From IMG/VR virus record IMGVR_UViG_3300024339_000005: 64,000 nt of DNA. One strand, written 5' to 3'. A program made the position numbers and the translations under genes. The notes under the pieces were generated by a model, which was not told the origin of the DNA, ran no database searches, and saw only the letters and a list, made by a program, of their open reading frames with translations. Every line of letters starts with the position of its first letter. Positions within the stretch are counted from its first letter, which is position 1. This document shows positions 2,554 to 58,314 of the stretch, piece by piece. Source of the stretch: a virus.

Positions 2554-2580
2554 AATAGAAATACTCCTAGTTCTTTACTG

Positions 2581-2588
2581 TATTTATA
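2581..2588 (-). promoter_or_regulatory. T4-type late promoter TATAAATA (gp13)
   Basis: Exact TATAAATA on the minus strand 28 nt upstream of the gp13 ATG. Confidence 0.8.
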
Positions 2589-2604
2589 AGAACCAGGGAG
2601 ACTA

Positions 2605-2904: not shown

Positions 2905-2907
2905 TTC

Positions 2908-5324: not shown

Positions 5325-5325
5325 C

Positions 5326-6816: not shown

Positions 6817-7145
6817 TAGTAACCTCTAATTTTCTTTAAGCGCGAATTGGCTTCTTCTAATTGCGCTTTTAAATTTCTCAACCTGTCTCTTGACGACTGG
6901 TTGCTACCACGCTTTTCAATGCGGTCTTCAATAGCCCACACTTGGCGTTGAATCTGTTCAACAATAAGTGTTTGGGTACGAACATCAAGACCTACCAGTT
7001 GGAATTTTACTTCCTCAACTTCGGTATTCCATGCGACCCTAGGAATATCAAGCCCCATTGCGTCTGCACCAGCATAAGCACCACCGATAGCAGAGACTAC
7101 GCCGAGAGAAATTGTGATATGTTTTAATGCGTCTATTATGTTCAT
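6816..7145 (-). CDS. Small protein with N-terminal TM helix and coiled coil
   Basis: Hydrophobic N-terminus, heptad-rich C-terminus; coupled to the downstream gene. Confidence 0.55.
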   Translation of the reverse strand: MNIIDALKHITISLGVVSAIGGAYAGADAMGLDIPRVAWNTEVEEVKFQLVGLDVRTQTLIVEQIQRQVWAIEDRIEKRGSNQSSRDRLRNLKAQLEEANSRLKKIRGY

Positions 7146-7153
7146 ATTACTAT

Positions 7154-7483
7154 TTAGCTGCCACCCTTGAATAAATTGCTTATGGCATCAAAAAAGGTGA
7201 AACCGACAGAACCTATGAAAGTAATAGCCAGGATGATACCCGCCCATTTGTTTTTCATAGCGATCAACGAGTTTTGGTTATCAATTAGCTTGTCCATCTT
7301 GTCAGATAATGCATCAATATGGTCTTCGGTCTTTTGATGATAAGCAAGTTCGCGCTCCTCATGTTTTTCTTGACCTTCTTTTATATCATCAATACGGTTA
7401 AAAGCCGTCTTGATTCTTTCGTCGTATCTGGCTTGCTCGGTTTCTAGGTGACCGATTCGTTCGCCGAGGTAATCGTTAGCCAT
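7154..7483 (-). CDS. Coiled-coil protein with C-terminal TM (XhlA/holin-like)
   Basis: ERIGHLE coiled coil followed by NKWAGIILAITFIGSVGFTFF TM helix. Confidence 0.55.
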   Translation of the reverse strand: MANDYLGERIGHLETEQARYDERIKTAFNRIDDIKEGQEKHEERELAYHQKTEDHIDALSDKMDKLIDNQNSLIAMKNKWAGIILAITFIGSVGFTFFDAISNLFKGGS

Positions 7484-43096: not shown

Positions 43097-43759
43097 CTAT
43101 TTCCTGTAAAAAATGTGGTCGCCAATCGTGGCGACCTCTTTGAAAGTCTTGCTCCAATAAGGGCTGACATAATTCGCATGATACCAAAGGGCCCCATGGG
43201 TTATGTCTTGCTCCGCATTAGCAGCCGTCACAACATCTTTAGCCTTTTCCCAGGCTGTCAGATCTCGTGGCTTGTCGCTCTTTCCGTCACAATAAAAGGA
43301 GAAGTGACATTTGTTTCGTATTGGATTACCCTTCCAGGTTTTTGATTGCTTGACCACGCCGCATACGCGACCAGGAAAGCCACTGTCAAGAACCCGATTC
43401 GCAACAACGTGGTAGACGGCTCTTTGCCCAGTATCGCTCTGATTCTTCGCCTCATGGTATACCGCCAATGCGGCGCACTCAAAGGCTTTTGCGGATAAAT
43501 CCAGGCGTTGGATACGCTCAAGAGTTCCCAATTGTGGCGCAAGAGTGGCATATTGTCTTTCCTTTGCGATATCAGGTATCTGGCTCGTTTTAGATTCCGT
43601 TTTATCTGCCGGATATCCGAGTCGAAATTGTCGATCATAACTAACACTCACTTTCACAGGTTCTGGTTTTTCAAATTCGGCTTTTCCAGCCAAGTCACCC
43701 ATTGTACTCGCATACCAACCAACAGCCACAAACGCAGCCGTAAATGTTATGGATTTCAT
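43097..43759 (-). CDS. Cell-wall hydrolase (SleB / Hydrolase_2)
   Basis: C.A..VYHEA.NQ...GQ.AV..VV.NRV....FP..VCGVV.Q, C.FS.YCDGKSD, GA..YHA.YV.P.W, IG.HIFY. Confidence 0.92.
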   Translation of the reverse strand: MKSITFTAAFVAVGWYASTMGDLAGKAEFEKPEPVKVSVSYDRQFRLGYPADKTESKTSQIPDIAKERQYATLAPQLGTLERIQRLDLSAKAFECAALAVYHEAKNQSDTGQRAVYHVVANRVLDSGFPGRVCGVVKQSKTWKGNPIRNKCHFSFYCDGKSDKPRDLTAWEKAKDVVTAANAEQDITHGALWYHANYVSPYWSKTFKEVATIGDHIFYRK

Positions 43760-45277: not shown

Positions 45278-45308
45278 TATTTATACATACTCGGTGATAT
45301 GGGGTCAA
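45278..45308 (-). promoter_or_regulatory. Overlapping sigma70 and late promoter for tmRNA
   Basis: TTGACC-17 nt-TATAAA, where the -10 box is also the late motif TATAAATA. Confidence 0.65.
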
Positions 45309-45476
45309 GACATAAACAATCATTCCACCCATAATAAATCCGGCTATGAAGCCGATGTTATATGTCTTTCCATCAGGGCACATATATCTTGACGTTTTCG
45401 ACAATCATAATGCCTGCGTCAGCCCAGCCAGCCGCCATCAAAGCGACCATGAAAACAGCGCCACCCAGTAAATAAT

Positions 45477-45722
45477 TCATACTGTCTCTCCTTCATTGAC
45501 CCAAACACCGATGTTTCCACCGTTAACGCCCTTAGACGCTTTGATTTCATGGACGCCCCATGTACCATCTTCCCAGCGGATATTCGCTTCAGTGACTTTG
45601 CCACGACGAACACCACCATATGTGGTCCAAACGTCGGTGACTTCACCGTAACTCATAGGATGCATTGCACCCCAATTGCCAACGACTTTGGTACCGGGCT
45701 TAAATTCTGTATCGTAATTCAT
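45477..45722 (-). CDS. Small early hypothetical protein
   Basis: GTKVVGNWGAMHP..YGEV; first gene behind a repeated promoter. Confidence 0.6.
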   Translation of the reverse strand: MNYDTEFKPGTKVVGNWGAMHPMSYGEVTDVWTTYGGVRRGKVTEANIRWEDGTWGVHEIKASKGVNGGNIGVWVNEGETV

Positions 45723-45743
45723 AATTTTCTCTCTCTTGGTTTC

Positions 45744-45787
45744 TGATCTTACTATCTGATCATGCACTATTTTTGACCAAATGTCAA
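45744..45787 (-). promoter_or_regulatory. Repeated early promoter element, copy 2
   Basis: Same ~45-bp motif. Confidence 0.85.
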
Positions 45788-45824
45788 CCCCTAAATGACA
45801 TTTTTATGCATTATATATACGATT

Positions 45825-46073
45825 ATGGATAAAATATATCATTTAATAGCAGGCATCGCCCTAGCATTAGTAACGCTAATTGCAACCGGAAGTGTATTCG
45901 CAGCCATGATTGCGACCACAGTGGTTGGACTTGGTAAGGAAATTTACGACTATCAGCATCAGGATAAACACACCCCAGAGGTAGCCGATTTCTTGGCTAC
46001 CGTGGTTGGTGGATTGTTAGTCTGTTTGGTCTACTTGCTTTCTTGGCAATGGTTGTTCGGGCTGTTTCAATAG
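45825..46073 (+). CDS. Small membrane protein (VanZ/YfiM-like DK..H...KE..D motif)
   Basis: MDKIYHLIAG...GLGKEIYD...DFLAT..GG; lone plus-strand gene. Confidence 0.7.
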   Translation: MDKIYHLIAGIALALVTLIATGSVFAAMIATTVVGLGKEIYDYQHQDKHTPEVADFLATVVGGLLVCLVYLLSWQWLFGLFQ

Positions 46074-46484
46074 TTCCATAAAAACCTTGCGTTGATTGCC
46101 TTTGCCACGCTTCAATTTAATATCGGTCTTTATCCCTTTGGCTTTCGCTCGTTTTGCTTCATCCAGTTTCTTGTGCATTTCTTTGGTGTAAGGCAACTCT
46201 AGGTTCTTGGGTTTGAGGGCAACAGCATCATTCGGTAGAACCCATAGGAAAATCGCTGTAGGCTCGTCAACCAAACTATCGACCAATCGGTATTCCCCGA
46301 GGTATTCGCTGGTTGTAGGATCTCCCAATAAATCCTGATAGACAGCATACCCATTGACGGCGAGAGCCATTGTGATTGGTATCATCAATACCATGCGCCA
46401 GGTATTCCCTCTCATCAAGATAATGAGCCAGAACGTCACCGCAATATACATGAATAGGGCTAGAAATAAAAGGAACGCGCTCAT
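46017..46484 (-). CDS. Membrane protein, two N-terminal TMs plus soluble domain (stator-like operon gene 4)
   Basis: Two TM helices, LLG.P, I.LWV, P....LPY....H..L; 4-nt overlap with the upstream gene. Confidence 0.7.
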   Translation of the reverse strand: MSAFLLFLALFMYIAVTFWLIILMRGNTWRMVLMIPITMALAVNGYAVYQDLLGDPTTSEYLGEYRLVDSLVDEPTAIFLWVLPNDAVALKPKNLELPYTKEMHKKLDEAKRAKAKGIKTDIKLKRGKGNQRKVFMELLKQPEQPLPRKQVDQTD

Positions 46485-47134
46485 CGGCCAACTCCATTAG
46501 GTCTATATCCAACTTCGCCTGGGTGCATAGAGGCTTGCAACATCTTGTTGATAAAAAATGCGCTCCTCGGTCCTACATCACGGGCTTTGCCATTTGGCTT
46601 CAATGTGAATCTGAACATGTGTAATTCCTCACGGTTCCTCTGTAATATGAAGCCCGCGATTCTGTGGACTTTGTATGGGTTTATCTGGATAAGTTCCACA
46701 GTACCAGTCACTGGTTCAGGGCCGCGTTTGGTATACATATGGACGTTGACCACATATTCGCCAGCCGTTGGCACCCTCACAGTAATGACCTCACGATTGA
46801 TTCGGGCTATCACTTCGTTGCCTGCACCGTCCACCGATTTATCGTTATGAACGCCGAGGTCGTCGCGCTCAAGGTATAGAGAACCGTTTTGGGTGTTTTT
46901 GAATCCGACAGGTTGCCCCGCTGGTGTCTGCACCCACATATCAACGTCATCAGCCACATTGGCATCCCAGTCAAGGACAATGATGTAATCGGCCTTCTTC
47001 TTAACGTCTTGCTTCTTCGTGGGTGGATTGATAAGGATCGCAGTCAGAATAAACAGAGACACAAAGGTCAGAGCCGTCAGAAATAGAACGTCTATGAATG
47101 CGGTCTTGGTGACCGTCTTAACCGAAATATTCAT
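46481..47134 (-). CDS. ExbD/MotB-like single-TM protein with YfaP-like periplasmic domain
   Basis: TM AFIDVLFLTALTFVSLFIL with the conserved Asp; W.....DVDMWV..P.G..V.F......LERDD.G...NRE......GEY.VNVH.Y. Confidence 0.72.
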   Translation of the reverse strand: MNISVKTVTKTAFIDVLFLTALTFVSLFILTAILINPPTKKQDVKKKADYIIVLDWDANVADDVDMWVQTPAGQPVGFKNTQNGSLYLERDDLGVHNDKSVDGAGNEVIARINREVITVRVPTAGEYVVNVHMYTKRGPEPVTGTVELIQINPYKVHRIAGFILQRNREELHMFRFTLKPNGKARDVGPRSAFFINKMLQASMHPGEVGYRPNGVGR

Positions 47135-47606
47135 CGCTTGTTTCACCGTAGGCACCAATCGCCATTTCCATGTTCATTATCTGTAGGCTGACCAACACAC
47201 CACAGACATAGCCCATAAGGGTTGTGTATAGCGCAGTACCCAATCCAGCAGCCACCGATACCAGAGCTTCCTTAACGCTAGACGTATCAGAAACATCAAG
47301 CAACCCAAACGTCCCGCTGGTCGCAATAATAAAGCCGATGATAGTGCCGACGAGCCCTGCGGTCACCATGAACTCTGGAATGTACCAGAGATATTTGCTA
47401 TCTGACCAAACATCATTGAAGGCTACTCGGTACGTCTTCAATCCTAGGACCAAGGACGATAGAACAAAGACGCCGAAAATGCCTGTACTTATGAACGTCT
47501 GGTCATTGTCAATGAATAGGTGGTGAATGTCAAACATTGTCATTACAGCGACCAAAGAAATCATCACAGCCGCAAACAAGTACCATCGCATAAAGAATTT
47601 TTTCAT
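47118..47606 (-). CDS. MotA/TolQ/ExbB-family proton-channel protein
   Basis: GLVGTIIGFI...GLGTALYTTLMG signature helices. Confidence 0.82.
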   Translation of the reverse strand: MKKFFMRWYLFAAVMISLVAVMTMFDIHHLFIDNDQTFISTGIFGVFVLSSLVLGLKTYRVAFNDVWSDSKYLWYIPEFMVTAGLVGTIIGFIIATSGTFGLLDVSDTSSVKEALVSVAAGLGTALYTTLMGYVCGVLVSLQIMNMEMAIGAYGETSDEYFG

Positions 47607-48052
47607 CAGCCTTCTGCCCTTTGATCGGGTTTTTTCATTTTCAAATCAATATGCAATTGTTTGCCGATAAAAATATAGCAGGACATTTTATTGGTGTAGT
47701 GTTCGACAACGGTAAAATTTCTTGTCTTTGGATCAACATAAGTCACAATGACCACTTTGTCGTTATTCGCAACACCTATCTCAATAGAAATTTGTTTTGA
47801 GTGTTCGATGTTTGCCATAACATACTTGGTTTCATTGCAAATTACTGGCTTCGCCCGTTGGAATGCCTGACCAGTTTTTCGTGGTACAGGCTTTGGTCGT
47901 GGCTTTGCTTTCGCAACAACAGGAGGTTTCACGACCGCCTTCGCGACTTTCACCGCAGGTTTCACTACCTCACCGACGTGTTTTATCTCGACAGAGATAC
48001 AGCCACTAAGCAGCAAACCGGCTAATGTAATTAGGATTAAGGGTCTTTTCAT
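47606..48052 (-). CDS. Lipoprotein with Pro/Lys-rich linker
   Basis: Lipobox LLSGC; KPAVKVAKAVVKPPVVAKAKPRPKPVPRK; C-terminal two-Cys domain. Confidence 0.65.
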   Translation of the reverse strand: MKRPLILITLAGLLLSGCISVEIKHVGEVVKPAVKVAKAVVKPPVVAKAKPRPKPVPRKTGQAFQRAKPVICNETKYVMANIEHSKQISIEIGVANNDKVVIVTYVDPKTRNFTVVEHYTNKMSCYIFIGKQLHIDLKMKKPDQRAEG

Positions 48053-48710
48053 ACTCTTTCCTCAATTCGATATAATCCCCGATGTGGTCGTCGCGTTTCT
48101 CATGGTAGACCACACCTTCAGGTCTGTTTTCGACAGCCATAATAATGATTATATCATTGATAGGGGTGCCCGTAAGTTCCTCATACATCACGGCATAGAC
48201 CGCGCATTGCATGAAATAAGACTTGATGAATTCTTTCTTGCGGAATTTCCGCGAGTTTTTGAAATCAACAATAGCCAACTTTCCCTTATATTTAGCGATC
48301 ATATCACAGCGACCACCAGTTTCAAGGTAGTCAGAATACATCGCAACTTCTTGGTGTGCAATATCGGTGATAGTGCCGTCAAGGATAGGTTTGATAGACG
48401 AGAACATGGAGTCCACGCCAGGCATAATATTGGCGTCGTAGTTTTCATTGCCCAACAGATACTTTTCGATCATATCATGCAAGGCTGAACCACGCAAACG
48501 TCCAACTCGACTCACTCTGTCGGCTTCTTCATCACCAACGGCTTCACGCCATTTAGCCAGACCCTCGTTCTTTTCGTCATCCGACGCAAGGACGGTGGTA
48601 ACCGAAGGATAGTGGCGACCTTCGGGAGTTAGATAAAAGCGACGACCGCCCTTATAAATCTCCTTCATATCACCTATGAAATCAAATGTCTGTTTTGTTG
48701 CCAACATCAA
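48006..48710 (-). CDS. PD-(D/E)XK Cas4-like exonuclease
   Basis: R.Y.TP.G..YPSVTTVL, W...VG..EA, RG..LH...E.YL, G.CD.IA...G..AIVDFK.S, Y..Q...YA.M..E. Confidence 0.9.
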   Translation of the reverse strand: MMLATKQTFDFIGDMKEIYKGGRRFYLTPEGRHYPSVTTVLASDDEKNEGLAKWREAVGDEEADRVSRVGRLRGSALHDMIEKYLLGNENYDANIMPGVDSMFSSIKPILDGTITDIAHQEVAMYSDYLETGGRCDMIAKYKGKLAIVDFKNSRKFRKKEFIKSYFMQCAVYAVMYEELTGTPINDIIIIMAVENRPEGVVYHEKRDDHIGDYIELRKEYEKTLNPNYISRFAA

Positions 48711-48939
48711 TGGTACTCTTAGGGTGGTGTTCTTTCACCCGCTGTAAGGTTTCACGGAATTCGGGAGTATGCTTCAAACCTGAAACGCTCCTCATGTTGT
48801 CACCCAAAAATAATGGTGCTTGGGCGATAAAGGTTTCCCAGTTTGGGTGGGCTGATAGATGGGATTGTAGTTCGTCCCAGGTACAATACTCCTCCCATTC
48901 CTTTTTGGTCTTCTTATTTCTTATTGAATAAATCGGCAA
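48682..48939 (-). CDS. FmdB-like small protein (Cys-poor)
   Basis: MPIY...N..T....E...L..HP; F...L..VK..HP.S.I. Confidence 0.65.
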   Translation of the reverse strand: MPIYSIRNKKTKKEWEEYCTWDELQSHLSAHPNWETFIAQAPLFLGDNMRSVSGLKHTPEFRETLQRVKEHHPKSTIDVGNKTDI

Positions 48940-49129
48940 TGTATTGTCCTAATTCTGTAAGTTGTTTCACGGTGATATCAGCCCATTGAAAGACTGTATC
49001 AAAAAGTTCGGGTGGTGTAATACCCAATAAACAAATAGTGACTAGGCCTGATAATACAAAATTACCAAGCCCAGCCTTCCATATCACAAAGGCAGCCAGA
49101 CCTAAAACGATAAAAATTTCAGGTGTCAT
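48914..49129 (-). CDS. Small membrane protein
   Basis: Two hydrophobic segments. Confidence 0.5.
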   Translation of the reverse strand: MTPEIFIVLGLAAFVIWKAGLGNFVLSGLVTICLLGITPPELFDTVFQWADITVKQLTELGQYIADLFNKK

Positions 49130-49776
49130 TACTCGGTCGTCACTTTAGGAACGGGCAAGGCAGGCATAGTTGCGACGGGCACATTGGTTTCTTTTTCCAG
49201 TTCCTTATGGGCTGCAGCCGCACGACCCAGGCTTTCGGTATTCAAAACCTTAACCAGTTGGGCTAACGCGATCTCGTTGGTTCCGTTGATAGGAAACTCC
49301 AACAGCGCATAGGTACGATAGAGGTTGCCATGAGGAACCACTTTGGTTTCGTTTACATGATAACCACTGGCTTGGGCGTTGGCAATCAAGTTGGCTGTGA
49401 CACGCTCGACCTCAGATACGATATGTCCAGAAGCAGCCTGTCCAACCCTGGAAGTATATTCCTTGAGTTTAGAACTCATTTGACCACGGATACGATCCGC
49501 CAAGACTCGTTTAGCCGCTAGAACGGCCAAGTCAACCGACAACTGAAGGTCTTGAGAGGTAGCCGTGCCCGCAGAGAACACCGAGTCCTCTTTCGCAGGT
49601 GTGTCCAAAAACCAATCGGGAATAGAACTAACCGTTTCTTCTGTCACGGTTGACTTTTTCTCGAGGTAGGCTTTGGAGTGGGTAGTTTCTGCCTGAGGGT
49701 CAATATCAATGGTTTGTGAACAAGCACCCAAAAGGGCCAACATGCTAACGGTAGCGAGTAACTTTTTCATAATCAA
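49129..49776 (-). CDS. LPP20-like lipoprotein
   Basis: Lipobox LGAC; IPDWF...P, GTA.S.DLQLS.D.A.L.AK..LADRI.G. Confidence 0.75.
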   Translation of the reverse strand: MIMKKLLATVSMLALLGACSQTIDIDPQAETTHSKAYLEKKSTVTEETVSSIPDWFLDTPAKEDSVFSAGTATSQDLQLSVDLAVLAAKRVLADRIRGQMSSKLKEYTSRVGQAASGHIVSEVERVTANLIANAQASGYHVNETKVVPHGNLYRTYALLEFPINGTNEIALAQLVKVLNTESLGRAAAAHKELEKETNVPVATMPALPVPKVTTE

Positions 49777-50207
49777 TTTCCAATAAATTTGGGTTTAACC
49801 CAGGGCAATCCAAATCGAGCCGTATCAATGATCCGATTGTTTCCCTGCATTTTCATACCCGTTTTACAGACCTCTTTTTTCACCATACTTAACGTGTGCG
49901 AAGTCTGTTCAAGGATTTTCGTCTTGGCTTCAATAAGAGCCTGTTCACACGCCCATTTCTCTGTCTCGCTGGGTCTAAAGAAAAATGATGAAGTACCCGA
50001 TACCTCGGATGTACCAACCAACCCAACAACCTGTACGACGCATTTGCGCCCAGTCAAAAAAGGCACCGTCGTTGACGATACGCTTTTGATATAATCCAGC
50101 CTACCATGATAGACCTCTTTTGTCTGTCTATCAATATAGCATGGAGTCGTGGCGCTTGCGGCTGTTGAAAGCAGCATAAGAGCGCCGACGGTCAATGATG
50201 TTTTCAC
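49773..50207 (-). CDS. Secreted Cys-containing protein
   Basis: Signal peptide ASA, four Cys; next to the LPP20-like lipoprotein. Confidence 0.6.
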   Translation of the reverse strand: MKTSLTVGALMLLSTAASATTPCYIDRQTKEVYHGRLDYIKSVSSTTVPFLTGRKCVVQVVGLVGTSEVSGTSSFFFRPSETEKWACEQALIEAKTKILEQTSHTLSMVKKEVCKTGMKMQGNNRIIDTARFGLPWVKPKFIGN

Positions 50208-50446
50208 TGGTCTTCCATCGCTTTGATGAATGCGCTAATCATCCCAAACATTTTGGCAGTCTCGGCTTTCGCCACAGCGGGGTCTTTGACTTTCATAGGG
50301 ACACAGACAACATCAACGTCGGTAGACATTTGGTTGATAACTTTGATAGACTCAGTCCGGCAGGTTTTCCAGTCGTCATAAGGAACCCTGGTCAATTCAT
50401 TTCCAGATACAAGGCTGGTCACGATCAGTACAATTTTCAACATCAC
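50204..50446 (-). CDS. Small secreted protein
   Basis: Hydrophobic N-terminus, C...CVP. Confidence 0.5.
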   Translation of the reverse strand: MMLKIVLIVTSLVSGNELTRVPYDDWKTCRTESIKVINQMSTDVDVVCVPMKVKDPAVAKAETAKMFGMISAFIKAMEDQ

Positions 50447-50591
50447 AAAGGGTTATCCTTTTTCACCTCAAAATATTGTGGAACCGCTTGTAATGCGGCC
50501 AGCAACTGGCGATTTTGTAAAGACATATCTTCAACAACACGCCGGAGTTTATTGTTTGCCTTGTGGCGTAATTCTTCAACAATATCCATAA

Positions 50592-50750
50592 TCACATTCC
50601 GTAAGTCAGAGTTTCAAAAACTTCGTCGTAGGCTTCTTCGGCCTCAACATCCTCACAACCGGTAATTTCTATGGCATGAATAACAGCTTGGTTATGGTTC
50701 ATATCCATTTCGACCAGGGCTTCTAAAATTGCATTCCGAATTTCACACAT
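50592..50750 (-). CDS. Small acidic hypothetical protein
   Basis: SD GAGG; behind a degenerate promoter copy. Confidence 0.5.
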   Translation of the reverse strand: MCEIRNAILEALVEMDMNHNQAVIHAIEITGCEDVEAEEAYDEVFETLTYGM

Positions 50751-50777
50751 GATTTTCTCCTCAAAAGGTAAACAATC

Positions 50778-50815
50778 ACTATCTAGATCATGCACCATTT
50801 CGGGGTAAATGTCAA
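50778..50815 (-). promoter_or_regulatory. Repeated early promoter element, degenerate copy 3
   Basis: TTGACATTT-accccg-AAATGGTGCATGATCtAGATAGT. Confidence 0.7.
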
Positions 50816-51002
50816 CCCCTTTTATCAAAAAACTTCACCTTTTTACCAATTTTCTTCAATCATTCCCGCCGTGCACCAGTATTCAATGCGTTCATATGCG
50901 TCCTGTTTCGACTTGGCCCGGACCTCTCTTACGATTTTTCCGTCCTCATCTATGCATATTGCGTAATAACTTTCACCGATAAAACCCAATTGTCCTGTAC
51001 GT

Positions 51003-51266
51003 TCACCCATTTTCATTTTCCTTTTCTGGTACCCAATCGTACCGTTTTACATCAATCACACGTTGACCATCTTTTACCAACACAATTTTGCCGGAGTCTT
51101 CCAGTTTGTGCAACATCATATCAATAATTTCACCCACCACCATAAGGGGTGGTACGACTTCTCTGACAGCCCTCATGGTATCGGCTAATCCCGCTTTATA
51201 CGAAACAAACGCGCAAACACCAAGAGAGGCTAAAAGTACCCAATCGGGCACCATAATTCCGAACAT
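51003..51266 (-). CDS. Hypothetical membrane-anchored protein
   Basis: N-terminal TM. Confidence 0.5.
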   Translation of the reverse strand: MFGIMVPDWVLLASLGVCAFVSYKAGLADTMRAVREVVPPLMVVGEIIDMMLHKLEDSGKIVLVKDGQRVIDVKRYDWVPEKENENG

Positions 51267-51299
51267 ATTTCAGTTCCTTTCAGGGTTATTTAGTGTGAA

Positions 51300-51557
51300 C
51301 TAAATCCACTCGCTTTCCTTGATGATATAGTTTTCCTCGTTTACACCAGCCAGCTCTCGGTCAGCCGTCAGCGTGACAAACGAATCGAACAACAGGTTGA
51401 AATGATACAAGAGGTTGTTGTAGTCGCCAGTCTTCATTCGATTTATGATCTCGGTGACTTCTTCTTCGGTGTCTACCGAATCTCGTAGCCAATTCTGGGC
51501 AATCCCAAGCAAGACAAAAGCATTGCCTTTGGGACCACCGATATCAAGATATTTCAT
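51300..51557 (-). CDS. Conserved phage hypothetical protein
   Basis: LDI.GP.GNAF.LLG.A...I...M..GDY..LL..F motif. Confidence 0.7.
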   Translation of the reverse strand: MKYLDIGGPKGNAFVLLGIAQNWLRDSVDTEEEVTEIINRMKTGDYNNLLYHFNLLFDSFVTLTADRELAGVNEENYIIKESEWI

Positions 51558-51775
51558 TATCGAATTCCTTCTTGCCTTGAGAGGTCCAAACCTTGGGCCA
51601 ACATCAGTTTCAATTCAACCTGCTCGTCGGGAATATTCACTGTGGCTTCGCCACTTAGACCAACCCGAACAATAATTCTCGCCACTTCAACATGGTCTGT
51701 CGGCCAGAAATCTTCGCCGTCTTTGGTGACCATAACCAACACGCCTTTGGGCGTGGCTCCAATATGCGTTATCAT
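51557..51775 (-). CDS. Hypothetical protein
   Basis: Coupled ORF. Confidence 0.5.
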   Translation of the reverse strand: MITHIGATPKGVLVMVTKDGEDFWPTDHVEVARIIVRVGLSGEATVNIPDEQVELKLMLAQGLDLSRQEGIR

Positions 51776-52011
51776 AGAGTTTTTCCTACTCGTAAGAGTT
51801 TGCCGATTTTTTCATCTTCGTATTTGCCACGCAGGCACCAGTTACGGAATGCAGAGCATTCGTTACCATCGGCTTCGCAGACAGCCTCCAGGTCACAGCC
51901 CTCGCAGGGCAAGTCCATTTTGCTGGTTAGATCGGGCAATTCATACTGACTCGCAGTAGATTTGCCCCATGCGGCTTCGCTTTCCCACCCGCTTGAAAGT
52001 GTTTCAATCAT
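51772..52011 (-). CDS. Small Cys-rich protein
   Basis: PCEGC....VC.....EC..F..W; start moved to MIETL. Confidence 0.5.
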   Translation of the reverse strand: MIETLSSGWESEAAWGKSTASQYELPDLTSKMDLPCEGCDLEAVCEADGNECSAFRNWCLRGKYEDEKIGKLLRVGKTL

Positions 52012-52189
52012 TATACATTTCCTCCAGGTTTTCACAGGTGCCACAACGGTTGCCGTTGATATCATAAAGATAATCAGCGGGGATTCCGACTTCAACACTA
52101 TCGGCGAGATCGCGCAAGATACGGGCGACTTGTTTTTCGCCGTATCCTGCAAACGCATCATTATCGGTATTCAAGGTGATGGTAATCAT
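52004..52189 (-). CDS. Conserved phage hypothetical protein
   Basis: I.TDN.AF...VARIL..LA...L.D.NGN..G. Confidence 0.7.
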   Translation of the reverse strand: MITITLNTDNDAFAGYGEKQVARILRDLADSVEVGIPADYLYDINGNRCGTCENLEEMYND

Positions 52190-52384
52190 TTACTGAACCT
52201 CCACTTCCACAATTTCTATATCAAGGGCTGATTCGAGCCATGATTCATAGGCATGAACAAAACTTTCATCGTCCGAGTCGAGCATGTAATTATTGCGTTC
52301 GACAAGTGCATCCCTGGCTTTATCTAATGAATCGAAAAAACCATCCAAATCGCCACAGCCCTCATGTAAATACCAAATTTTCAT
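52190..52384 (-). CDS. Small acidic hypothetical protein
   Basis: MKIWYL...G.FDS..KA. Confidence 0.5.
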   Translation of the reverse strand: MKIWYLHEGCGDLDGFFDSLDKARDALVERNNYMLDSDDESFVHAYESWLESALDIEIVEVEVQ

Positions 52385-52385
52385 T

Positions 52386-52697
52386 TTACAGCCCCGCCCA
52401 ACGAACGGTGTAACCACCATCCAGAATGTTTCCACGGGCAAAGTTACGCGCAGGACCAGCCCAGCCAGCAGGCTTCAGGATATCGCCCTTACGAAACTTT
52501 TTGTCGTTATCAACAGCAACAACAAAACCCCAGACGCAATTGTTCTGGATGATTTTGGTATATTTGTTTCCTTCAACGACTTCAAGGCCGTTTTCGAAAC
52601 GCTCGATCATCGCTTCGTTGGGCGAATTTACAAGGCCGGACCAGCGTCTGTAATCAGCTTTCAGATTCTCAAGCAGAGTGGCTATTTCGGTATTCAT
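52386..52697 (-). CDS. Conserved T4-like phage hypothetical protein
   Basis: G.KY.KII....VWGFV.....KF..GDILK.AGW..PA.N.ARGNI. Confidence 0.75.
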   Translation of the reverse strand: MNTEIATLLENLKADYRRWSGLVNSPNEAMIERFENGLEVVEGNKYTKIIQNNCVWGFVVAVDNDKKFRKGDILKPAGWAGPARNFARGNILDGGYTVRWAGL

Positions 52698-52831
52698 TTC
52701 GCAGAAACTCCTTTGTTATAAGCAAGTTCTTTACTCATTGACTTTGCAGCAACTTGTTTCACGGAACCACCACCAGCGAGATATTCAGCGGTTTTGGCTT
52801 CAATCATTTCACGCATTTCTTGTTTAGTCAT
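52694..52831 (-). CDS. Small hypothetical protein
   Basis: YLAGGGSV.QV motif; first gene behind a promoter copy. Confidence 0.55.
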   Translation of the reverse strand: MTKQEMREMIEAKTAEYLAGGGSVKQVAAKSMSKELAYNKGVSAK

Positions 52832-52857
52832 TTTCAATTCTCTCTCTTTGTTTCTAA

Positions 52858-52902
52858 TTGATCTTACTATTTGATCATGCACTATTTCTGACCAAATGTC
52901 AA
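52858..52902 (-). promoter_or_regulatory. Repeated early promoter element, copy 4
   Basis: Same motif. Confidence 0.85.
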
Positions 52903-52907
52903 GCGTT

Positions 52908-52969
52908 TATTGCACTTTATTGAAATAAAGTTTGCATCTATTGCACTTTATTTCAATAAAGTTTGCATC
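52908..52969. repeat. 31-bp tandem duplication of a palindrome with inverted 2-bp core
   Basis: tattgcaCTTTATT-ga-AATAAAGtttgcatc, then tattgcaCTTTATT-tc-AATAAAGtttgcatc. Confidence 0.85.
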
Positions 52970-53277
52970 ATTTCAGGGGTAAAACCGGAAGCATTAAGCA
53001 ACCCGGCGAATTCTGCGTTTAATTTAGCGTTTGCAGCATTTTTTGCAGCACGGGCAGCAGCGCGACTTTCCGCAGTTTCAAGCGTAGTAACTTCGTTCAA
53101 GACAGCGGTAAAAGCATCTTTGACAGTCGCAGCAACAGCAACACCAGTTTTGCCCTGATATTTCGCAGTAGCACGAAAATTTCCGTCTTCAGTAGGACGA
53201 ATCCAACCGAGTGTGGCGCGACCAGTGGTAATTCTGAAACTGGTCTGGGTCTCTTTTTTCATGGTGAAAGTAGTCAT
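52948..53277 (-). CDS. Early hypothetical protein
   Basis: First gene behind a promoter copy; Ala-rich C-terminus. Confidence 0.6.
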   Translation of the reverse strand: MTTFTMKKETQTSFRITTGRATLGWIRPTEDGNFRATAKYQGKTGVAVAATVKDAFTAVLNEVTTLETAESRAAARAAKNAANAKLNAEFAGLLNASGFTPEMMQTLLK

Positions 53278-53296
53278 TTGTTTTCTCTCTTGGTTC

Positions 53297-53341
53297 TTGA
53301 TCTTACTATCTGATCATGCACTATATTTGACCAAATGTCAA
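53297..53341 (-). promoter_or_regulatory. Repeated early promoter element, copy 5
   Basis: Same motif. Confidence 0.85.
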
Positions 53342-53372
53342 GCGAAATCGACAAAAAAGGTGAGAAAAAAGC

Positions 53373-53411
53373 AAAAAAAATGCCCCAGAGTGGCCATTCC
53401 CCGGGGCATTT
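53373..53411 (-). terminator. Rho-independent terminator
   Basis: AAATGCCCC...GGGGCATTT followed by a U8 tract on the minus strand. Confidence 0.8.
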
Positions 53412-53616
53412 CTCTTATTCATAGTCTTACGTCTTATACATCTATATCTCATATATGGGGTCTTATCCCCCTGTGGGCAGAGATTCCAGAATTCAGCACG
53501 ACACACTCTCGGTCTTGGGCTGCCGGTGTTTCTGGGCAGCCTTCTATCGAAAGATTTATATATCGCTCCTTCTTTTCTCCTCACGGTACCAGTAACCGAT
53601 AGTCACATTCGACTAT
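53373..53616 (-). ncRNA. Candidate ~240-nt structured small RNA
   Basis: Bounded by promoter 53622-53650 and terminator 53373-53411; several hairpins; no convincing ORF. Confidence 0.5.
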
Positions 53617-53621
53617 TCTTG

Positions 53622-53650
53622 ATCCTAGCATAAAGCCAGGCGTTTGTCAA
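53622..53650 (-). promoter_or_regulatory. Sigma70-type promoter
   Basis: TTGACA-17 nt-TAGGAT, followed by CAAgAATAGT as in the repeated promoter. Confidence 0.65.
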
Positions 53651-54582
53651 TCATAAATTACGCATTGTTCGCAAATAGTTCCGGTCACATCTTTTTCAAT
53701 ATGCTTGGCCCGTAACTCCTGAAACTTTTCAGAATGCCATGCGTCCATGAATGAAGTTGTATTAAGGTCACCCATATCAAACCTAGAGTCGTGGTCGAAG
53801 CAACAGGCGCTTAGGCGACCATCAAAGGAAATGTGCCCCTCGGTGAAAATACTCCAACATGGGAGTGGGTCGCGTAGCGCGTCAAGCCGACCACGGTTTC
53901 CTTGAACGAAAGTCCAATCTTCATTTTCGACCAAAGCAGCCTGGTTGTATAAAGGCAGCGCATACATTTCATCAAGGTGTGGGCTCAAGTCAGCCAGGTA
54001 TTCCTCGATCTTGTCAGCTTGGTCGCCTGTGTATTCGATAAAGGAAGCAGAGAGGGTGCAGTTATAGCCACCTTCTTCACGGACCTTGTAAGCACCCTTG
54101 ACGTTCTCGGCAATGGTGTAAAACAGTTCACCCTTGACCCGTGCGATTTCCTTGAATTGCTCCTCGTCGGCATAGTTCAATGAGAACTTGAGGCTATCGA
54201 GTCCAGCCTCCATGCATTCTTTCACCTTCTCGGGTGTAGACAGAGAACCGTTGGTTGTCAAAAACACATACGGATAACCGCAGTCTTCTTTGGCATACCG
54301 AATGGCTTCAGGCAACCTTGGGTCTAAAAATGATTCACCCAAATAAAACATTCCAAGTTCCTCGACTCCAGCCTCACGCATTTCTTTTACCACTCTTTTG
54401 AAGAGGTCCCAATCCATTGCGCCTGTTTGTCGTAAACGATCATTATGGGCACAAAATCCGCATCGAAAATTACATTTTCCTGTCAGTTCAATTTTCACAC
54501 TTTCGGGTGTGGGTGGCTTGAGAGAAAAATGTTTTTCTTTCATCCCTGTTATGTTATCAATCCGGTCGGTAATCTTACCCAT
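53647..54582 (-). CDS. Radical SAM enzyme with SPASM/twitch domain
   Basis: CNFRCGFC; GE.FLDP; TTNGSL; PC...F....I..DG...ACC.D...C..C. Confidence 0.92.
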   Translation of the reverse strand: MGKITDRIDNITGMKEKHFSLKPPTPESVKIELTGKCNFRCGFCAHNDRLRQTGAMDWDLFKRVVKEMREAGVEELGMFYLGESFLDPRLPEAIRYAKEDCGYPYVFLTTNGSLSTPEKVKECMEAGLDSLKFSLNYADEEQFKEIARVKGELFYTIAENVKGAYKVREEGGYNCTLSASFIEYTGDQADKIEEYLADLSPHLDEMYALPLYNQAALVENEDWTFVQGNRGRLDALRDPLPCWSIFTEGHISFDGRLSACCFDHDSRFDMGDLNTTSFMDAWHSEKFQELRAKHIEKDVTGTICEQCVIYD

Positions 54583-54600
54583 TATCTATTTCCTTGTTGT

Positions 54601-54608
54601 TATAAATA
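54601..54608 (+). promoter_or_regulatory. Late promoter TATAAATA
   Basis: Exact motif upstream of the endonuclease relic; SD AGGAG at 54656-54660. Confidence 0.7.
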
Positions 54609-54670
54609 GTTGTAGTCGCGGAATTCGTAGTTCCCACCACATCTAATTCTCTCATAGGAGATATCAGCAA

Positions 54671-54867
54671 ATGATTCCATACACATATTTAGTTACTTCC
54701 AAAACGACTGGTCAAAAATACTATGGCGCCCGTTATGCGTCAAATGGTCAGCCGAGACAAAAGCGAAAATGAGTAAATCGGCAATGGGTAATAAATGGGG
54801 TGTTGGTTATAAACAGACAGACGAACACCGAGCAAAAATTACTGGTCGACCAAAATCACTCAGTTGA
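54671..54867 (+). pseudogene. Internally deleted GIY-YIG-like/NUMOD3 homing endonuclease
   Basis: MIPYTYLVTSKTTGQKYYGARYA is joined out of frame to SAETKAKMSKSAMGNK...QTDEHRAKI. Confidence 0.75.
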
Positions 54868-55606
54868 TAATATCCTCATGGGAAAACGGTCGACCAAATG
54901 TAGCCTTGAATTCCTCTTTCCAGTAGTCTGCATAATCTACATCTTGGCATTCGGCGAATAAAGGAGCCCCAAGCGTATGATGTACTACCATCGGCATCTT
55001 CTCTGGCTTGTCCTGTTCGCCAACTAGAAAGTTGAAATCAAGAGGCAAGTCACCGATATATTCATCGGGGCACCATTCGAATCTGTGTAAGTATTTAGGA
55101 GAGGCAGTCTCAACAACCGTGTTGGTGAGTTGTTTTGTCACAGGGTGATCGCAATTATAAATCGTGAAAGCGGACCATTGTTTCCGTGGGTAAACCGTCT
55201 GTGGTATACCACCCATCTTGTCATCGAACTTCGGTGTATAATCATGCTGTGGGCATTGAATAGCCTTAGACGGATCGAAAGCGTCAAACACTTCCAAAAT
55301 ATTCCGGGTGATAAGCATATCACAATCCATGAACACACCAACGCCCTGATAGCCCATCAAATGTGGCACAAGGAATCGGGTGATAGAAAACTGGGTGCTG
55401 CCCATTGGGTCAATAGGACGGTCACAAATATCATAAGCAAGCAACTGGTCCCGTATGATAGGAAAAATACCAAGTTTCATATTGGTTCGACTACGAATAG
55501 AATGAGCCAACATCTTTGCGGCTTTGTCCTCAAGTGGGTCGTACCCAATAAACACCGCGTCATCACAAAACGGGGCTTCTTCTATATCATCAAAAAATCT
55601 AGTCAT
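54860..55606 (-). CDS. GT-A fold glycosyltransferase (GT8-like)
   Basis: VFIGYD..E, STQFS..RFL.P.L..Y.G...FMDCDML, YPRK.WS, HHTLG.P. Confidence 0.85.
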   Translation of the reverse strand: MTRFFDDIEEAPFCDDAVFIGYDPLEDKAAKMLAHSIRSRTNMKLGIFPIIRDQLLAYDICDRPIDPMGSTQFSITRFLVPHLMGYQGVGVFMDCDMLITRNILEVFDAFDPSKAIQCPQHDYTPKFDDKMGGIPQTVYPRKQWSAFTIYNCDHPVTKQLTNTVVETASPKYLHRFEWCPDEYIGDLPLDFNFLVGEQDKPEKMPMVVHHTLGAPLFAECQDVDYADYWKEEFKATFGRPFSHEDIIN

Positions 55607-56177
55607 TCTCTAATTCTTTCATCAACGTATTGTAGAAAATTCCGTCGGCATTCGTGGCACTCAATTGGTGAAAGCCCTCATGCAATTCATCAAACACAAA
55701 TCTGAAATGTATGTTGGGATTATCTCGGGCATACCAATCAAAATAATGGCAGCGTTTTTGAGAATCCGTCATGGTCGTGCGAACTTTTTTATCGCCGTCG
55801 AACATGTTGGAAATGCTCTGAATACTGTTATACATGAAATCGAAGCCGAGTAAATACAGCCTGGTGTTTCCAGCCTTGATGGCTTCGGCCATAGCATTCA
55901 TGCCGGCATTGGACCTGATGCTAGACGGACCATTATAGCCCTCTAATTCATATTGTTCATGTTCGGGCGGAAAGATACAGCGGTCTTCAGGAAAACCAGC
56001 TTCACGAATCATTTCCTTGCGATAGTCTTCAATCGAAACGGTGAAGTCTGGTATCTCAAAGTTTGGGTATTCCGTGAATAACAGATTGCATCCGTATACT
56101 GTGCCGTATGGTTTCAGGAAGCGGAGGTCAAAGCCTTCACGACTCCGCCCGTTGCCCACTATAAATGCTGTCGTCAT
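55599..56177 (-). CDS. Maf/MptE/sialyltransferase-like nucleotide-binding protein
   Basis: AFIVGNG.SR..FDL..L...G.VYGCN, NAG..A, YLLGFDF. Confidence 0.7.
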   Translation of the reverse strand: MTTAFIVGNGRSREGFDLRFLKPYGTVYGCNLLFTEYPNFEIPDFTVSIEDYRKEMIREAGFPEDRCIFPPEHEQYELEGYNGPSSIRSNAGMNAMAEAIKAGNTRLYLLGFDFMYNSIQSISNMFDGDKKVRTTMTDSQKRCHYFDWYARDNPNIHFRFVFDELHEGFHQLSATNADGIFYNTLMKELEND

Positions 56178-56303
56178 TTTCTTCTAATTCCTCGACATAA
56201 TCAAACAGTTCCTTTTTAGAGAACCTTTTCCGGGTGCCGGTTTCGCGGGGTAGCTTGTTGCTACCCCACTCGTCGTCGTATTCTTTTCGCTGTACTTTTG
56301 ACA

Positions 56304-56714
56304 TTAGTAGGTCAGTAGGCCGGGGAAGGCCTCCCTCACAGTAGCCTCGTTCAGGCCCTTGAGTTTACCGTTTGCCATCGCAATCATCATTTTGGCATCA
56401 TCAGGATGAAGCATTTCAAGCGTATCCACCCACAATTTCTCACGACGATTCGGCGCTAGATTTGGTGCACCGCCCTCGACAAACACATAGAGTTTTCGAA
56501 CTTGACCCCATAGATTTTCTTCGGCGTCATGTGGCTCGTTCACCACATAAGGTGGCTCACCATCTGGAAGCAACCACTTGATGTTTGGGTTAACCCAATA
56601 GGCACAGAACTCCCGAAATGTCGGGTTGTCGTTCTTGCGTAGAATCTCAATCTTCTTGGTATTGCTGCGGCACTTCTTTAAGTCAGCCGCAATTTCTGCT
56701 AGTAATGGTTTCAT
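56304..56714 (-). CDS. Conserved T4-like phage protein (DUF6433-like)
   Basis: KI..LR, W.LP.G.PPY, RKLY.FV.GG, RRE......LE.LHP.DA, V..AFP.L. Confidence 0.75.
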   Translation of the reverse strand: MKPLLAEIAADLKKCRSNTKKIEILRKNDNPTFREFCAYWVNPNIKWLLPDGEPPYVVNEPHDAEENLWGQVRKLYVFVEGGAPNLAPNRREKLWVDTLEMLHPDDAKMMIAMANGKLKGLNEATVREAFPGLLTY

Positions 56715-57577
56715 TGGAAGTCCCTTATGTCCTTCATTAAATGTTTCAATTTGTTGGTGATGAAATAACTGAACAGGTCACCCGTAGGCTTATGTTCGGT
56801 ATTATATTGCTTCATCACTTGGTGTTTCACGTTGTCGGGTACAAGCGCAAGGTCAATAAGAGCCTCGTTTCGCTTCCAACCACGTAGCATTTTCTCGTCA
56901 CAAAAATCTTCTGGCGCCTGATTAATCCATTTGCCAATCTTGACTTTGCCTAGAGTTTTCTTAACGCCACTATCTTCAACAAGGCAGTTATCGTCGGAAA
57001 GGAAGTTGGGTATGCCATCGCCCTTATCGCCTGCCATGATATGCTCCCTAAGATAGCGTTCCGGGTTTTTCTCTTTAACCCATTTCTTTTGAATAGGGGA
57101 GTATTGATCCACGTTGGAAAATTTCTGAAGTTGTACGAAATCCTTGTCAGAACTCAAGATCAGAATGGGCTCTCCGCCGCCGAATTCAATTCCGAATTCA
57201 TAGCATAGAGTACCAATGCAGTCGTCAGCCTCGGCATGTTCAACTTGAATCATTTTCCAGGGGAAGTGGTTGCGAACTTCATCACGCACCTTATTGAGAA
57301 TGCGGAACAGTTCCTGCCAATCAATGGTATCTTTGTCTTGGGTACCTTTACGACCAGCCTTGTAATAGGGGAACATTTCCTTGCGCCAGTAATGGCGATC
57401 GTCGGCACAGATAATCATTTCACCGTATTTGTCGCCGAACTTGCGTTTGTACGAGCGAAGCCCATTCAACACCATATGGCGTATCATGCCTTCATCAAGG
57501 GCGTTGTCACTCCCACCAAAACGCATTTGCATAAAAATATTCGAAATCATCACTTGGTTTATATCAACGAGAATCAT
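56711..57577 (-). CDS. rnh: T4-type RNase H / 5'-3' exonuclease
   Basis: MILVD.NQ, IRHM.LN, YWR...FPYYK..R, EADD.I, ILSSDKDF.QL, GD.GDGIPN.LS.D. Confidence 0.95.
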   Translation of the reverse strand: MILVDINQVMISNIFMQMRFGGSDNALDEGMIRHMVLNGLRSYKRKFGDKYGEMIICADDRHYWRKEMFPYYKAGRKGTQDKDTIDWQELFRILNKVRDEVRNHFPWKMIQVEHAEADDCIGTLCYEFGIEFGGGEPILILSSDKDFVQLQKFSNVDQYSPIQKKWVKEKNPERYLREHIMAGDKGDGIPNFLSDDNCLVEDSGVKKTLGKVKIGKWINQAPEDFCDEKMLRGWKRNEALIDLALVPDNVKHQVMKQYNTEHKPTGDLFSYFITNKLKHLMKDIRDFQ

Positions 57578-57864
57578 TTTTCAGTCCTAGTAATAATAAA
57601 TTGGCCATCCTTTGGGATTGGTCCATAAAACTTAATCGTGCCATCACCTGACGGAACATAATCGGGATCGGACTGGTATTTTTTACCGTCGAACCACACA
57701 GACAAAGAAAAGGGTTCAGTACCGAATCCCCATTCTGCAAAGTCTTGGGTCAAATGACTCTTGCTTCCCCAAAATTTAGAGGCCTTCGCGGGTAACGTCA
57801 TCAACACAGGTACAGCCGCGATAGTCGCAAACAACCCTGTTAAAAAATTTCTGCGTTTCATCAT
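57574..57864 (-). CDS. Protein with twin-arginine (Tat)-like signal peptide
   Basis: MKRRNFLTGLFATIAAVPVL...AKA. Confidence 0.6.
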   Translation of the reverse strand: MMKRRNFLTGLFATIAAVPVLMTLPAKASKFWGSKSHLTQDFAEWGFGTEPFSLSVWFDGKKYQSDPDYVPSGDGTIKFYGPIPKDGQFIITRTEK

Positions 57865-57895
57865 ATTACGATCATACACCAATTATTTCATTATG

Positions 57896-58303
57896 TCAAG
57901 TAAAATCTGGGTCTTCTTCTTCATTTTGTAAATATTCTTCGAATTCCTCATCAAAATAGTCTGGCAATTCTTCATCACCAAAGTATCCGGCTTGGTTTTC
58001 GTACATATCATCCATGAGGCTGTGAAGCGGGTGGTCTATATCGACATTGCGATACATCGCGCACCTTATCATTTCCATCACAATTGAAAAGTCCTCGCCG
58101 CATTTCTGGTCGAAGACATTGATACCAATCATAGCAAAACTGTTCATCAAAGCCCCGCCAATCTGGTCCACCGAAGCGTCCAGATAGCGTTGCTTATTCA
58201 TTTGTAGGTCTTGCTTATCAGGTTCCGATAGCGCGTTCTCAATACTCTTGATGGCGTGTATCGGAAACTGTACCACATTGTCAGTCATACAAACACCTTT
58301 CAT
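57896..58303 (-). CDS. Conserved hypothetical protein
   Basis: NVVQFP...E.IR..MYR.....HPL; late promoter TATAAATA at 58312-58319. Confidence 0.65.
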   Translation of the reverse strand: MKGVCMTDNVVQFPIHAIKSIENALSEPDKQDLQMNKQRYLDASVDQIGGALMNSFAMIGINVFDQKCGEDFSIVMEMIRCAMYRNVDIDHPLHSLMDDMYENQAGYFGDEELPDYFDEEFEEYLQNEEEDPDFT

Positions 58304-58314
58304 TGTGCTTGTAT

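Follow-up and report, generated by a model that had tools for sequence, protein, structure and literature searches.

What would a T4-like phage do with a set of overlapping genes whose products recall the subunits of an ion-driven membrane motor? The question is raised by the viral sequence IMGVR_UViG_3300024339_000005 (IMG/VR), a stretch of 64,000 nucleotides (nt) referred to below as the window, in which four minus-strand open reading frames (ORFs) with overlapping ends occupy positions 46017-48052. The initial annotation had read these as a phage-encoded, overlap-coupled operon of the stator type, comprising a lipoprotein, a MotA/TolQ/ExbB-type protein (here subunit A), a single-pass protein with an Asp in its transmembrane (TM) helix (subunit B) and a two-TM protein (subunit C). 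Reanalysis yielded the same ORFs and junctions. The window sequence is also contained in a 139.7-kb metagenome contig of the Joint Genome Institute (JGI), where the JGI gene calls give the same four genes. The reading preferred here, with a probability of roughly 0.6, is that A, B and C form a minimal complex of the 5:2 type that runs on the proton-motive force (PMF), has its output in the periplasm or at the cell wall and is probably made early. The four genes are as follows.

47606-48052, minus strand: lipoprotein gene, 148 amino acids (aa)
47118-47606, minus strand: subunit A gene, 162 aa
46481-47158, minus strand: subunit B gene, 225 aa counted from the first TTG
46017-46484, minus strand: subunit C gene, 155 aa

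An exonuclease gene overlaps the lipoprotein gene by 47 nt, the lipoprotein/A and B/C junctions are ATGA overlaps, and A and B overlap by 17-41 nt; for B, alignment with homologues makes the ATG at 47134 a more likely start than the first TTG. A, B and C are predicted to be translationally coupled.

Subunit A has four hydrophobic segments (about residues 8-25, 39-58, 78-100 and 118-146) and contains GLVGTIIGF and GLGTALYTTLMG; these and the other motifs named at the outset, the LSGC box and Pro/Lys linker of the lipoprotein and the AFIDVLF of B, are all present. The Pfam model MotA_ExbB (PF01618) gave 26.2, 23.0, 42.4 and 37.6 bits on homologues of A, and 12.4 bits, below the cut-off, on the copy in phage 16-3. 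A profile of 66 members matches solved MotA (8gqy) at 2.5e-5, together with chains of PomA, TolQ, ExbB and ZorA; each of these matches covers the last two TM helices only (TM3-TM4). The profile also matches E. coli TolQ directly, at 19.6 bits, and ExbB at 18.3 bits. In the alignments with solved chains the motifs lGmiGTviG and AlyTTlvG fall on fGMIGTLIG and ALITTLYG of MotA and likewise on the corresponding motifs of PomA. Among the curated models, PADLOC ZorA2 matched A at 2.5e-7 and NCBIfam ZorA at 1.5e-5, the latter with 22-24 bits against cut-offs of 500-700. Over 92 non-redundant sequences, the channel motifs GxxGT (84-88) and A..TT..G (125-132) are conserved at 97-100%: G84, G87, T129 and G132 are invariant, and T88 (99%) and T128 (97%) nearly so, as is D35 (97%) outside the motifs. 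The assignment of A to the MotA_ExbB family, made at first from a few motifs, is upheld by these sequence comparisons.

The family to which A belongs is nevertheless a reduced one. In MotA and ExbB, a cytoplasmic domain sits where A has a TM2-TM3 loop of only about 20 aa (residues 59-78), and no sizeable cytoplasmic domain was found between the early and late TM helices. A phmmer search of 1.84 billion representative sequences returned 956 relatives at E<=1e-3, each standing for a cluster at 50% identity, of which 206 reach E<=1e-10; the best 150 of the 956 measure 102-237 aa, mostly 130-195 aa. Because relatives are this numerous and the best 150 are of similar size, A is interpreted as a member of a large 'mini-MotA' protein family and not as a broken gene.

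Subunit B has one predicted TM helix (17-43) followed by a short basic linker, and Asp23 lies at the N-terminal, cytoplasmic end of that helix within the family motif AFxD(L/V)LF. This Asp, which had been proposed as the channel residue, is retained by 87 of the 89 non-redundant relatives; both exceptions are ORF-start artefacts. A four-sequence alignment had suggested that B of phage 16-3 lacks it; the profile alignment restores the Asp there. The B profile places Asp23 on MotB D32 and ExbD D25, with scores that are insignificant because the segment is so short. B thus shows the pattern of a B subunit, with an N-terminal TM helix, a conserved Asp near its cytoplasmic end and a gene beside A that overlaps the A gene in most loci. 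The net charge flanking the TM helix is +2.0 on the N-terminal side versus +0.4 after it, and because the N-terminal flank is the more positive, the sequence fits an N-in orientation with a periplasmic C-terminal domain. No ExbD (PF02472), MotB or OmpA match was obtained at E<=1 in Pfam or NCBIfam, and B has no family in Pfam, NCBIfam, PADLOC or PHROGs. The label 'ExbD/MotB-like' therefore describes position, topology and motif, homology not being demonstrable at the sequence level.

For the part of B beyond the membrane, the initial annotation had proposed a YfaP-like beta domain in place of an OmpA or ExbD fold, and the structural model agrees with it. The AlphaFold (AF2) model (mean predicted local distance difference test score, pLDDT, 74.9) contains a beta-sandwich at 58-196 whose best matches among solved structures are the TerD-family entries 3ibz (Z 11.6), 2qng (10.1) and 2qz7 (9.9); a Z of about 10 is also reached by two non-TerD entries, 9a6r_B and 7jtk_A, after which the score drops to 6.6 for the next distinct fold. 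The domain is accordingly modelled as a TerD-like fold, neither an ExbD/TolR fold nor an OmpA-like peptidoglycan-binding domain. The Pfam TerD and DUF2135 models do not match window B; the B profile finds Leptospira proteins carrying Pfam DUF2135 at 30-31 bits, with which B has in common the motif W..DxDLWV..P.G and later strands, and E. coli YfaP at only 7.4 bits. W64, D71 and D73 are conserved at 100% and D99, E123 and R128 at 99%, within an invariant cluster of W64, D71, D73, R98-D99-D100, N121, E123 and R128. By analogy with TerD and PPC domains, this cluster suggests metal binding, and the beta-sandwich probably binds Ca2+. The Leptospira matches are flanked by a 1538-aa protein and a penicillin-binding protein (PBP) transpeptidase; in one Leptospira sp. 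locus (1092-7457) the DUF2135 protein lies between the two, an arrangement that looks like an alpha-2-macroglobulin/PbpC-type operon.

A neighbourhood survey of 89 non-redundant loci, drawn from IMG/VR contigs, Rhizobium phages and bacterial chromosomes, indicates which of the four genes belong together. A lies immediately 5' of B in 81 of the 82 loci with enough sequence (the exception is an ORF-calling artefact), and C lies 3' of B in 84 of 87, in 78 cases no more than 60 nt away. Where a gene is inserted after B, as with a DUF1501 protein in three loci (L004-L006) and a 419-aa protein in a fourth (L007), a C homologue is still found further downstream. Because A precedes and C follows B almost invariably, even past an inserted gene, the conserved unit is read as a three-gene cassette, A-B-C, whose co-occurrence is far beyond chance. 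The proposed four-gene operon is thereby narrowed: A-B-C is conserved and the lipoprotein is lineage-specific. None of the outcomes named beforehand as contradicting the stator-type reading (no MotA_ExbB match, an unconserved Asp, no co-occurrence of the genes) was observed, and that reading is supported overall. The inserts themselves, of about 420 aa, occur in marine phage contigs (5643-6923 in L004-L006, 5666-6925 in L007); the first is a sulfatase-like DUF1501 protein with a twin-arginine translocation (Tat)-like signal, and the second has no family.

The cassette is widespread in phages. With B as the tblastn query, 29 phage records were found. They correspond to some 20 different phages of Rhizobium and Sinorhizobium, T4-like, other lytic and temperate, with three or more genome types among them: the temperate phage 16-3, phages of about 68 kb and T4-like Pootjesviridae of about 155 kb. 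In each of the three types, inspection showed a MotA_ExbB-type gene upstream of B and a C-like gene downstream. The same search with A found nothing, and its link to the Rhizobium phage genes was made by profile methods only. A scan of IMG/VR gave 340 contigs encoding B, and a scan of one genome per prokaryotic species, queried with a four-sequence alignment, gave 30 loci. On an 820-kb contig of a gammaproteobacterial metagenome-assembled genome, the trio has housekeeping genes to either side. One flank encodes a class II aminoacyl-tRNA synthetase (Pfam tRNA-synt_2, D/K/N type) together with adenylosuccinate lyase and fumarase; the other encodes aconitase and MnmA. On a 6.97-Mb Desulfobacterales chromosome it stands amid acyl-CoA dehydrogenase and radical-SAM genes, and in a second gammaproteobacterial group, convergent genes for an OmpA-family protein and a DUF255 thioredoxin lie downstream of it. 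Because such chromosomal copies sit amid housekeeping genes, several bacterial loci are clearly cellular and the cassette is not phage-specific; the description of it as phage-encoded holds for phages and the IMG/VR contigs and needs to be widened to bacteria. In the B protein tree, bacterial sequences form taxon-coherent clades among viral ones, and the tree is midpoint-rooted, so that the direction of transfer is not readable from it.

Two further observations concern individual loci. On one Desulfobacterales chromosome (L118, 5301-6417), B is cut to 148 aa with no C after it, and sister Desulfobacterales genomes differ; this copy looks degenerate. In two large viral contigs (L040, L061), a gene for a DnaK/Hsp70-like protein of about 630 aa lies directly 5' of the cassette, as judged from its N-terminal sequence only.

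The third conserved protein, subunit C, is predicted to begin with a TM hairpin (2-23 and 28-53), whose second helix holds a conserved IP and is followed by an LG(Y)P motif; beyond this come a periplasmic beta-barrel (63-139) and a tail rich in Lys and Arg. Its AF2 model (pLDDT 83.5) has the hairpin followed by a small beta-barrel with one helix. No Pfam family matched C, and a fold search against 48,161 solved chains gave nothing significant: the best Z was 7.2, and the matches, at Z 6-7, were generic helical hairpins and OB-like barrels.

What C might act upon is suggested by its relatives. The 10 loci of a single viral clade encode a longer C, of about 300 aa, to which a Phage_lysozyme domain (PF00959, glycoside hydrolase family GH24) is fused as the C-terminal 125 residues; the four fusions scanned gave values of 1e-45 to 1e-50, the remainder having been found by a domain profile. 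The fused domain matches solved endolysins, including P22 lysozyme and the signal-anchor-release (SAR) endolysins R21 and P1 Lyz. Such a fusion implies that the C-terminal part of C must be periplasmic and argues that the cassette works at peptidoglycan. Other hydrolases lie nearby: an M15 peptidase gene, about 50% identical in product to annotated pelagiphage endolysins, ends 2 nt before A in L064 and L070 and is one gene away in L013-L015 and L051, and an Amidase_2 plus PG_binding_1 gene follows C by about 750 nt in L116 and L117. In the window, a gene for a Hydrolase_2 protein (SleB-type cell-wall hydrolase, 220 aa) at 43097-43759, minus strand, lies 2.3 kb downstream of the cassette, and such a gene is found at a similar distance (2-3 kb) in the closest relative, TARA contig L090, which is 46% identical in A and 60% identical in the flanking exonuclease. 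Altogether a hydrolase of one of four unrelated types is fused or nearby in 20 of 117 loci. Fusion and adjacency would thus point to the cell wall as the target of the cassette, a target absent from the roles first listed for it.

The predicted lipoprotein consists of a putative signal peptide, a lipobox (LSGC, with Cys18), a Pro/Lys-rich linker at about 29-58 and a globular domain with two Cys at 60-142. Read directly, MKRPLILITLAGLLLSGC fits the lipobox pattern [LVI][ASTVI][GAS]C; the Pfam model LPAM_1 gave 12.1 bits (cut-off 20). Because no homologue occurs in the first 89 related loci (L001-L089) and a search of 5.8 billion proteins returned only the protein itself, the lipoprotein is placed outside the conserved unit as a lineage-specific addition. 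In L090, a syntenic 117-aa gene encodes its two-Cys C-terminal domain (34% identity over 83 aa, E 2e-13), with an ordinary signal peptide and without the Pro/Lys linker. A different and unrelated lipoprotein gene precedes A in L053, L081 and L087, and it may be, speculatively, that an outer partner has been recruited to the cassette repeatedly.

The timing of expression was approached through promoter-like motifs in the window.

50787-50815, minus strand: promoter-like site of the sigma-70 type, TTGACA-17-CATGAT, heading the transcription unit of the cassette
2581, 13479, 19861, 20631, 22414, 22808, 27073 and 33614, minus strand: TATAAATA sites ahead of baseplate and tail-fibre genes

The same two hexamers recur on the minus strand at 45787-45759, just past the cassette, and at 44915-44887, so that the cassette sits between sigma-70-type sites with identical hexamers at 50815 and 45787. 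The T4-type late motif TATAAATA has 14 copies in the window versus 2.2 expected, mostly ahead of structural genes, and has no copy on the minus strand from 45286 to 58311. Because sigma-70-like sites lie upstream and the late motif is absent from this interval, early expression of the cassette is likely. Each of the three TTGACA-17-CATGAT sites precedes small minus-strand genes.

As a working model, five copies of A would surround a B dimer, by analogy with known 5:2 complexes. A would contribute four TM helices and the channel-lining Thr motifs with essentially no cytoplasmic domain, and protons or ions would be carried by B's invariant TM Asp. Since A offers no face to the cytoplasm, output on the periplasmic side is expected. 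B would set its TerD/DUF2135-like beta-sandwich right above the A ring, and C, as a peripheral, force-receiving or effector subunit, would use its TM hairpin for docking, in the manner of TonB and TolA, and would present its periplasmic domain to the cell wall; in some phages this domain would be extended by the GH24 lysozyme. The lipoprotein would be an optional, lineage-specific outer partner. The phage would make the complex early, from sigma-70-type promoters, probably for PMF-coupled remodelling or policing of the host envelope or peptidoglycan.

Comparison with known systems places the cassette within their superfamily but apart from each of them. Like ExbB-ExbD-TonB and TolQ-TolR-TolA, it is a three-gene unit in which a MotA_ExbB-family channel subunit, with motifs of the GxxGT and TT types, is combined with a single-pass protein bearing an Asp close to the cytoplasmic end of its TM helix and with a membrane-anchored third protein that has a periplasmic domain; the window lipoprotein loosely recalls Pal of the Tol system. 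Unlike their Ton and Tol counterparts, however, A has four TM segments without a cytoplasmic domain, B carries a TerD/DUF2135-like beta-sandwich and gives no ExbD match with hidden Markov models (HMMs), and C combines a TM hairpin with a small beta-barrel and lacks both a Pro-rich spacer and the TonB/TolA C-terminal domain. Neither TolB nor Pal nor a TonB-dependent receptor accompanies the cassette. The stators MotAB and PomAB (PDB 8gqy, 8brd, 6ykm) are the best solved-structure matches of the A profile (2.5e-5 to 3e-3), share four TM helices with A and align at MotB D32 with the Asp motif of B; A lacks the torque-generating cytoplasmic domain of MotA and PomA, B lacks the plug-linker and OmpA-like domain of MotB and PomB, and no flagellar genes lie near the cassette. 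Zorya ZorA-ZorB offers the best curated-HMM matches of A and the example of a non-flagellar, envelope-associated motor in a setting of phage-bacterium conflict. Yet the ZorA scores of A are 22-28 bits against cut-offs of 100-700, A (162 aa) has no long ZorA tail, B has no ZorB-type peptidoglycan-binding domain, and ZorC, ZorD and ZorE are absent; none of the PADLOC models matched B or C. As for the fold of B, TerD proteins occur in soluble form in the cytoplasm and those of the YfaP type are secreted, and neither has an Asp-bearing TM helix or a MotA-like partner gene, unlike B. In the clade with fusions, C resembles the SAR endolysins of phage 21 (R21) and P1 (Lyz) in being a membrane-anchored GH24 lysozyme, but its anchor is the two-helix hairpin plus beta-barrel of the cassette and not a releasable single SAR helix. 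The window's own C, unlike these relatives, has no hydrolase domain. In the literature searched, superfamily reviews included, no description of A-B-C was found, and the cassette is regarded as a new variant within the superfamily of known ion-driven machines.

Several points weigh against the preferred reading. A is without the cytoplasmic domain that is present in every characterised family member, and the window's own A scores 22.7 bits with MotA_ExbB, just under the cut-off of 22.9. The direct alignment of the B Asp with MotB and ExbD scores about 0 bits, and no ExbD, TolR, MotB or ZorB chain appears among the PDB matches of the B profile at E<=10. The predicted topology of A and C is backed by a weak charge bias. 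Recognisable cell-wall hydrolases, fused or nearby, account for only 20 of the 117 loci, and two bacterial copies (L099, L101) have purely metabolic neighbours. Early expression is read solely from consensus matches, and the assembly, stoichiometry and ion flux of A-B are predictions drawn from its relatives. A complex prediction with four copies of A and two of B residues 1-62, a non-native stoichiometry run without controls, scored 0.04 against a mark of 0.32 and counts neither way.

In the furthest-reaching version of this reading, the cassette would be a mechanotransducer that is powered by protons and by which a peptidoglycan hydrolase is controlled or delivered: its A5B2 rotary unit would drive C, in some phages itself a lysozyme, against the wall. 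This extension is possible but decidedly tentative. It shares with FtsEX the idea of a membrane machine governing a cell-wall hydrolase, although the energy source would be PMF and not ATP. If it is true, the cassette would be the PMF-driven counterpart of the ATP-driven FtsEX; phages would employ the cassette to remodel the envelope or to control lysis, and some bacteria to maintain their wall. Alternatively, A and B may form a gated ion channel, not a force-transducing motor. Opened by a trigger at the envelope, it would depolarise the membrane, and it would serve superinfection exclusion, abortive defence or, in the way of a pinholin, the timing of membrane-tethered lysozymes. The absence of a cytoplasmic torque surface on A would suit a channel, as would the apparent early expression, like that of T4 exclusion genes, the patchy, island-like bacterial distribution with the degenerate copy L118 and a HipA toxin neighbour, and the resemblance of the C-fused lysozyme to R21 and P1 Lyz, which are activated by depolarisation. 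ZorA is the best NCBIfam and PADLOC match of A as well, but this similarity is limited to the TM3-TM4 core common to the whole superfamily, and beyond A the cassette has no match to a known defence system in PADLOC. Because the characterised relatives all couple ion flow to movement, and a simple leak needs no conserved third subunit with a periplasmic domain, the channel explanation is considered unlikely.

More improbable still is that all four genes constitute a trans-envelope lysis device, a spanin or Tol-Pal equivalent in which an outer-membrane lipoprotein is linked to inner-membrane proteins for a late breach of the envelope. The outer-membrane-type lipoprotein with its Pro-rich linker, overlap-coupled to A, invites this explanation, as do the unrelated lipoproteins before A in L053, L081 and L087 and the endolysin genes adjacent or fused in several lineages. 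However, the lipoprotein is missing from almost all loci and its one homologue is not a lipoprotein; B is modelled as a beta-sandwich and C as a beta-rich domain, whereas i-spanins have a coiled coil; and the combination expected of two-component spanins (a coiled-coil inner-membrane subunit, a Pro-rich outer-membrane lipoprotein and a lysis cassette) was not found at the locus. There is no late promoter upstream, a PMF-driven machine would be dead after holins collapse the PMF, and the bacterial copies stand amid housekeeping genes. These chromosomal copies, which show that the cassette is maintained by bacteria, also count against the notion that A, with or without B, is a decoy that enters and poisons the host TolQR, ExbBD, MotAB or ZorAB for anti-defence or takeover. 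That notion, prompted by a phage-borne and apparently early A that is a truncated family form closest to ZorA in curated HMM libraries, is very improbable, given that the cassette supplies a B, with its invariant Asp, and a C of its own, that its channel residues are fully conserved, that it is carried by phages of very different hosts and that its identity to any host motor is low.

To our knowledge, only a handful of 5:2 ion-driven motors are understood, namely the flagellar, Ton, Tol, gliding/type IX secretion and Zorya motors. If the reading of A-B-C as a minimal PMF-driven complex is correct, a very small member would be added, with a different axle domain, a new third subunit and periplasmic output, and its small size would make it attractive for structural and single-molecule work on motor rotation. 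A role for the cassette would also annotate widespread viral dark matter (956 clusters of A, 340 IMG/VR contigs with B), and the lysozyme fusions and endolysin neighbours connect membrane energy with the cutting of the cell wall in a concrete way that is open to test. For such work, genetic systems are available in cultured phages of Rhizobium and Sinorhizobium, among them the classic phage 16-3 (p038-p042 region).

The window as a whole derives from a marine T4-like myovirus: its long ORFs match PHROGs for the baseplate wedge, the baseplate hub/tail lysozyme and tail fibres, and its gp6-like protein shares about 40% identity with the counterparts in Methylophilales phage Melnitz, Pelagibacter phage HTVC008M and cyanophages. 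The DNA of the cassette region had no match among 50,697 phage records, and none of the four proteins matches a PHROGs family. Upstream of the exonuclease, within the transcription unit of the cassette, three further envelope-type proteins are encoded on the minus strand between 48914 and 50207.

49773-50207, minus strand: envelope-type protein, 144 aa, with a signal peptide
49129-49776, minus strand: envelope-type lipoprotein, 215 aa, with the lipobox LLGAC and a weak LPP20 match
48914-49129, minus strand: envelope-type protein, 71 aa, with two TM segments

At the other end of the cassette, a convergent plus-strand ORF at 45795-46073 encodes a hydrophobic protein of 92 aa and shares 57 nt with the 3' end of gene C; it is also among the JGI gene calls, there with 82 aa.

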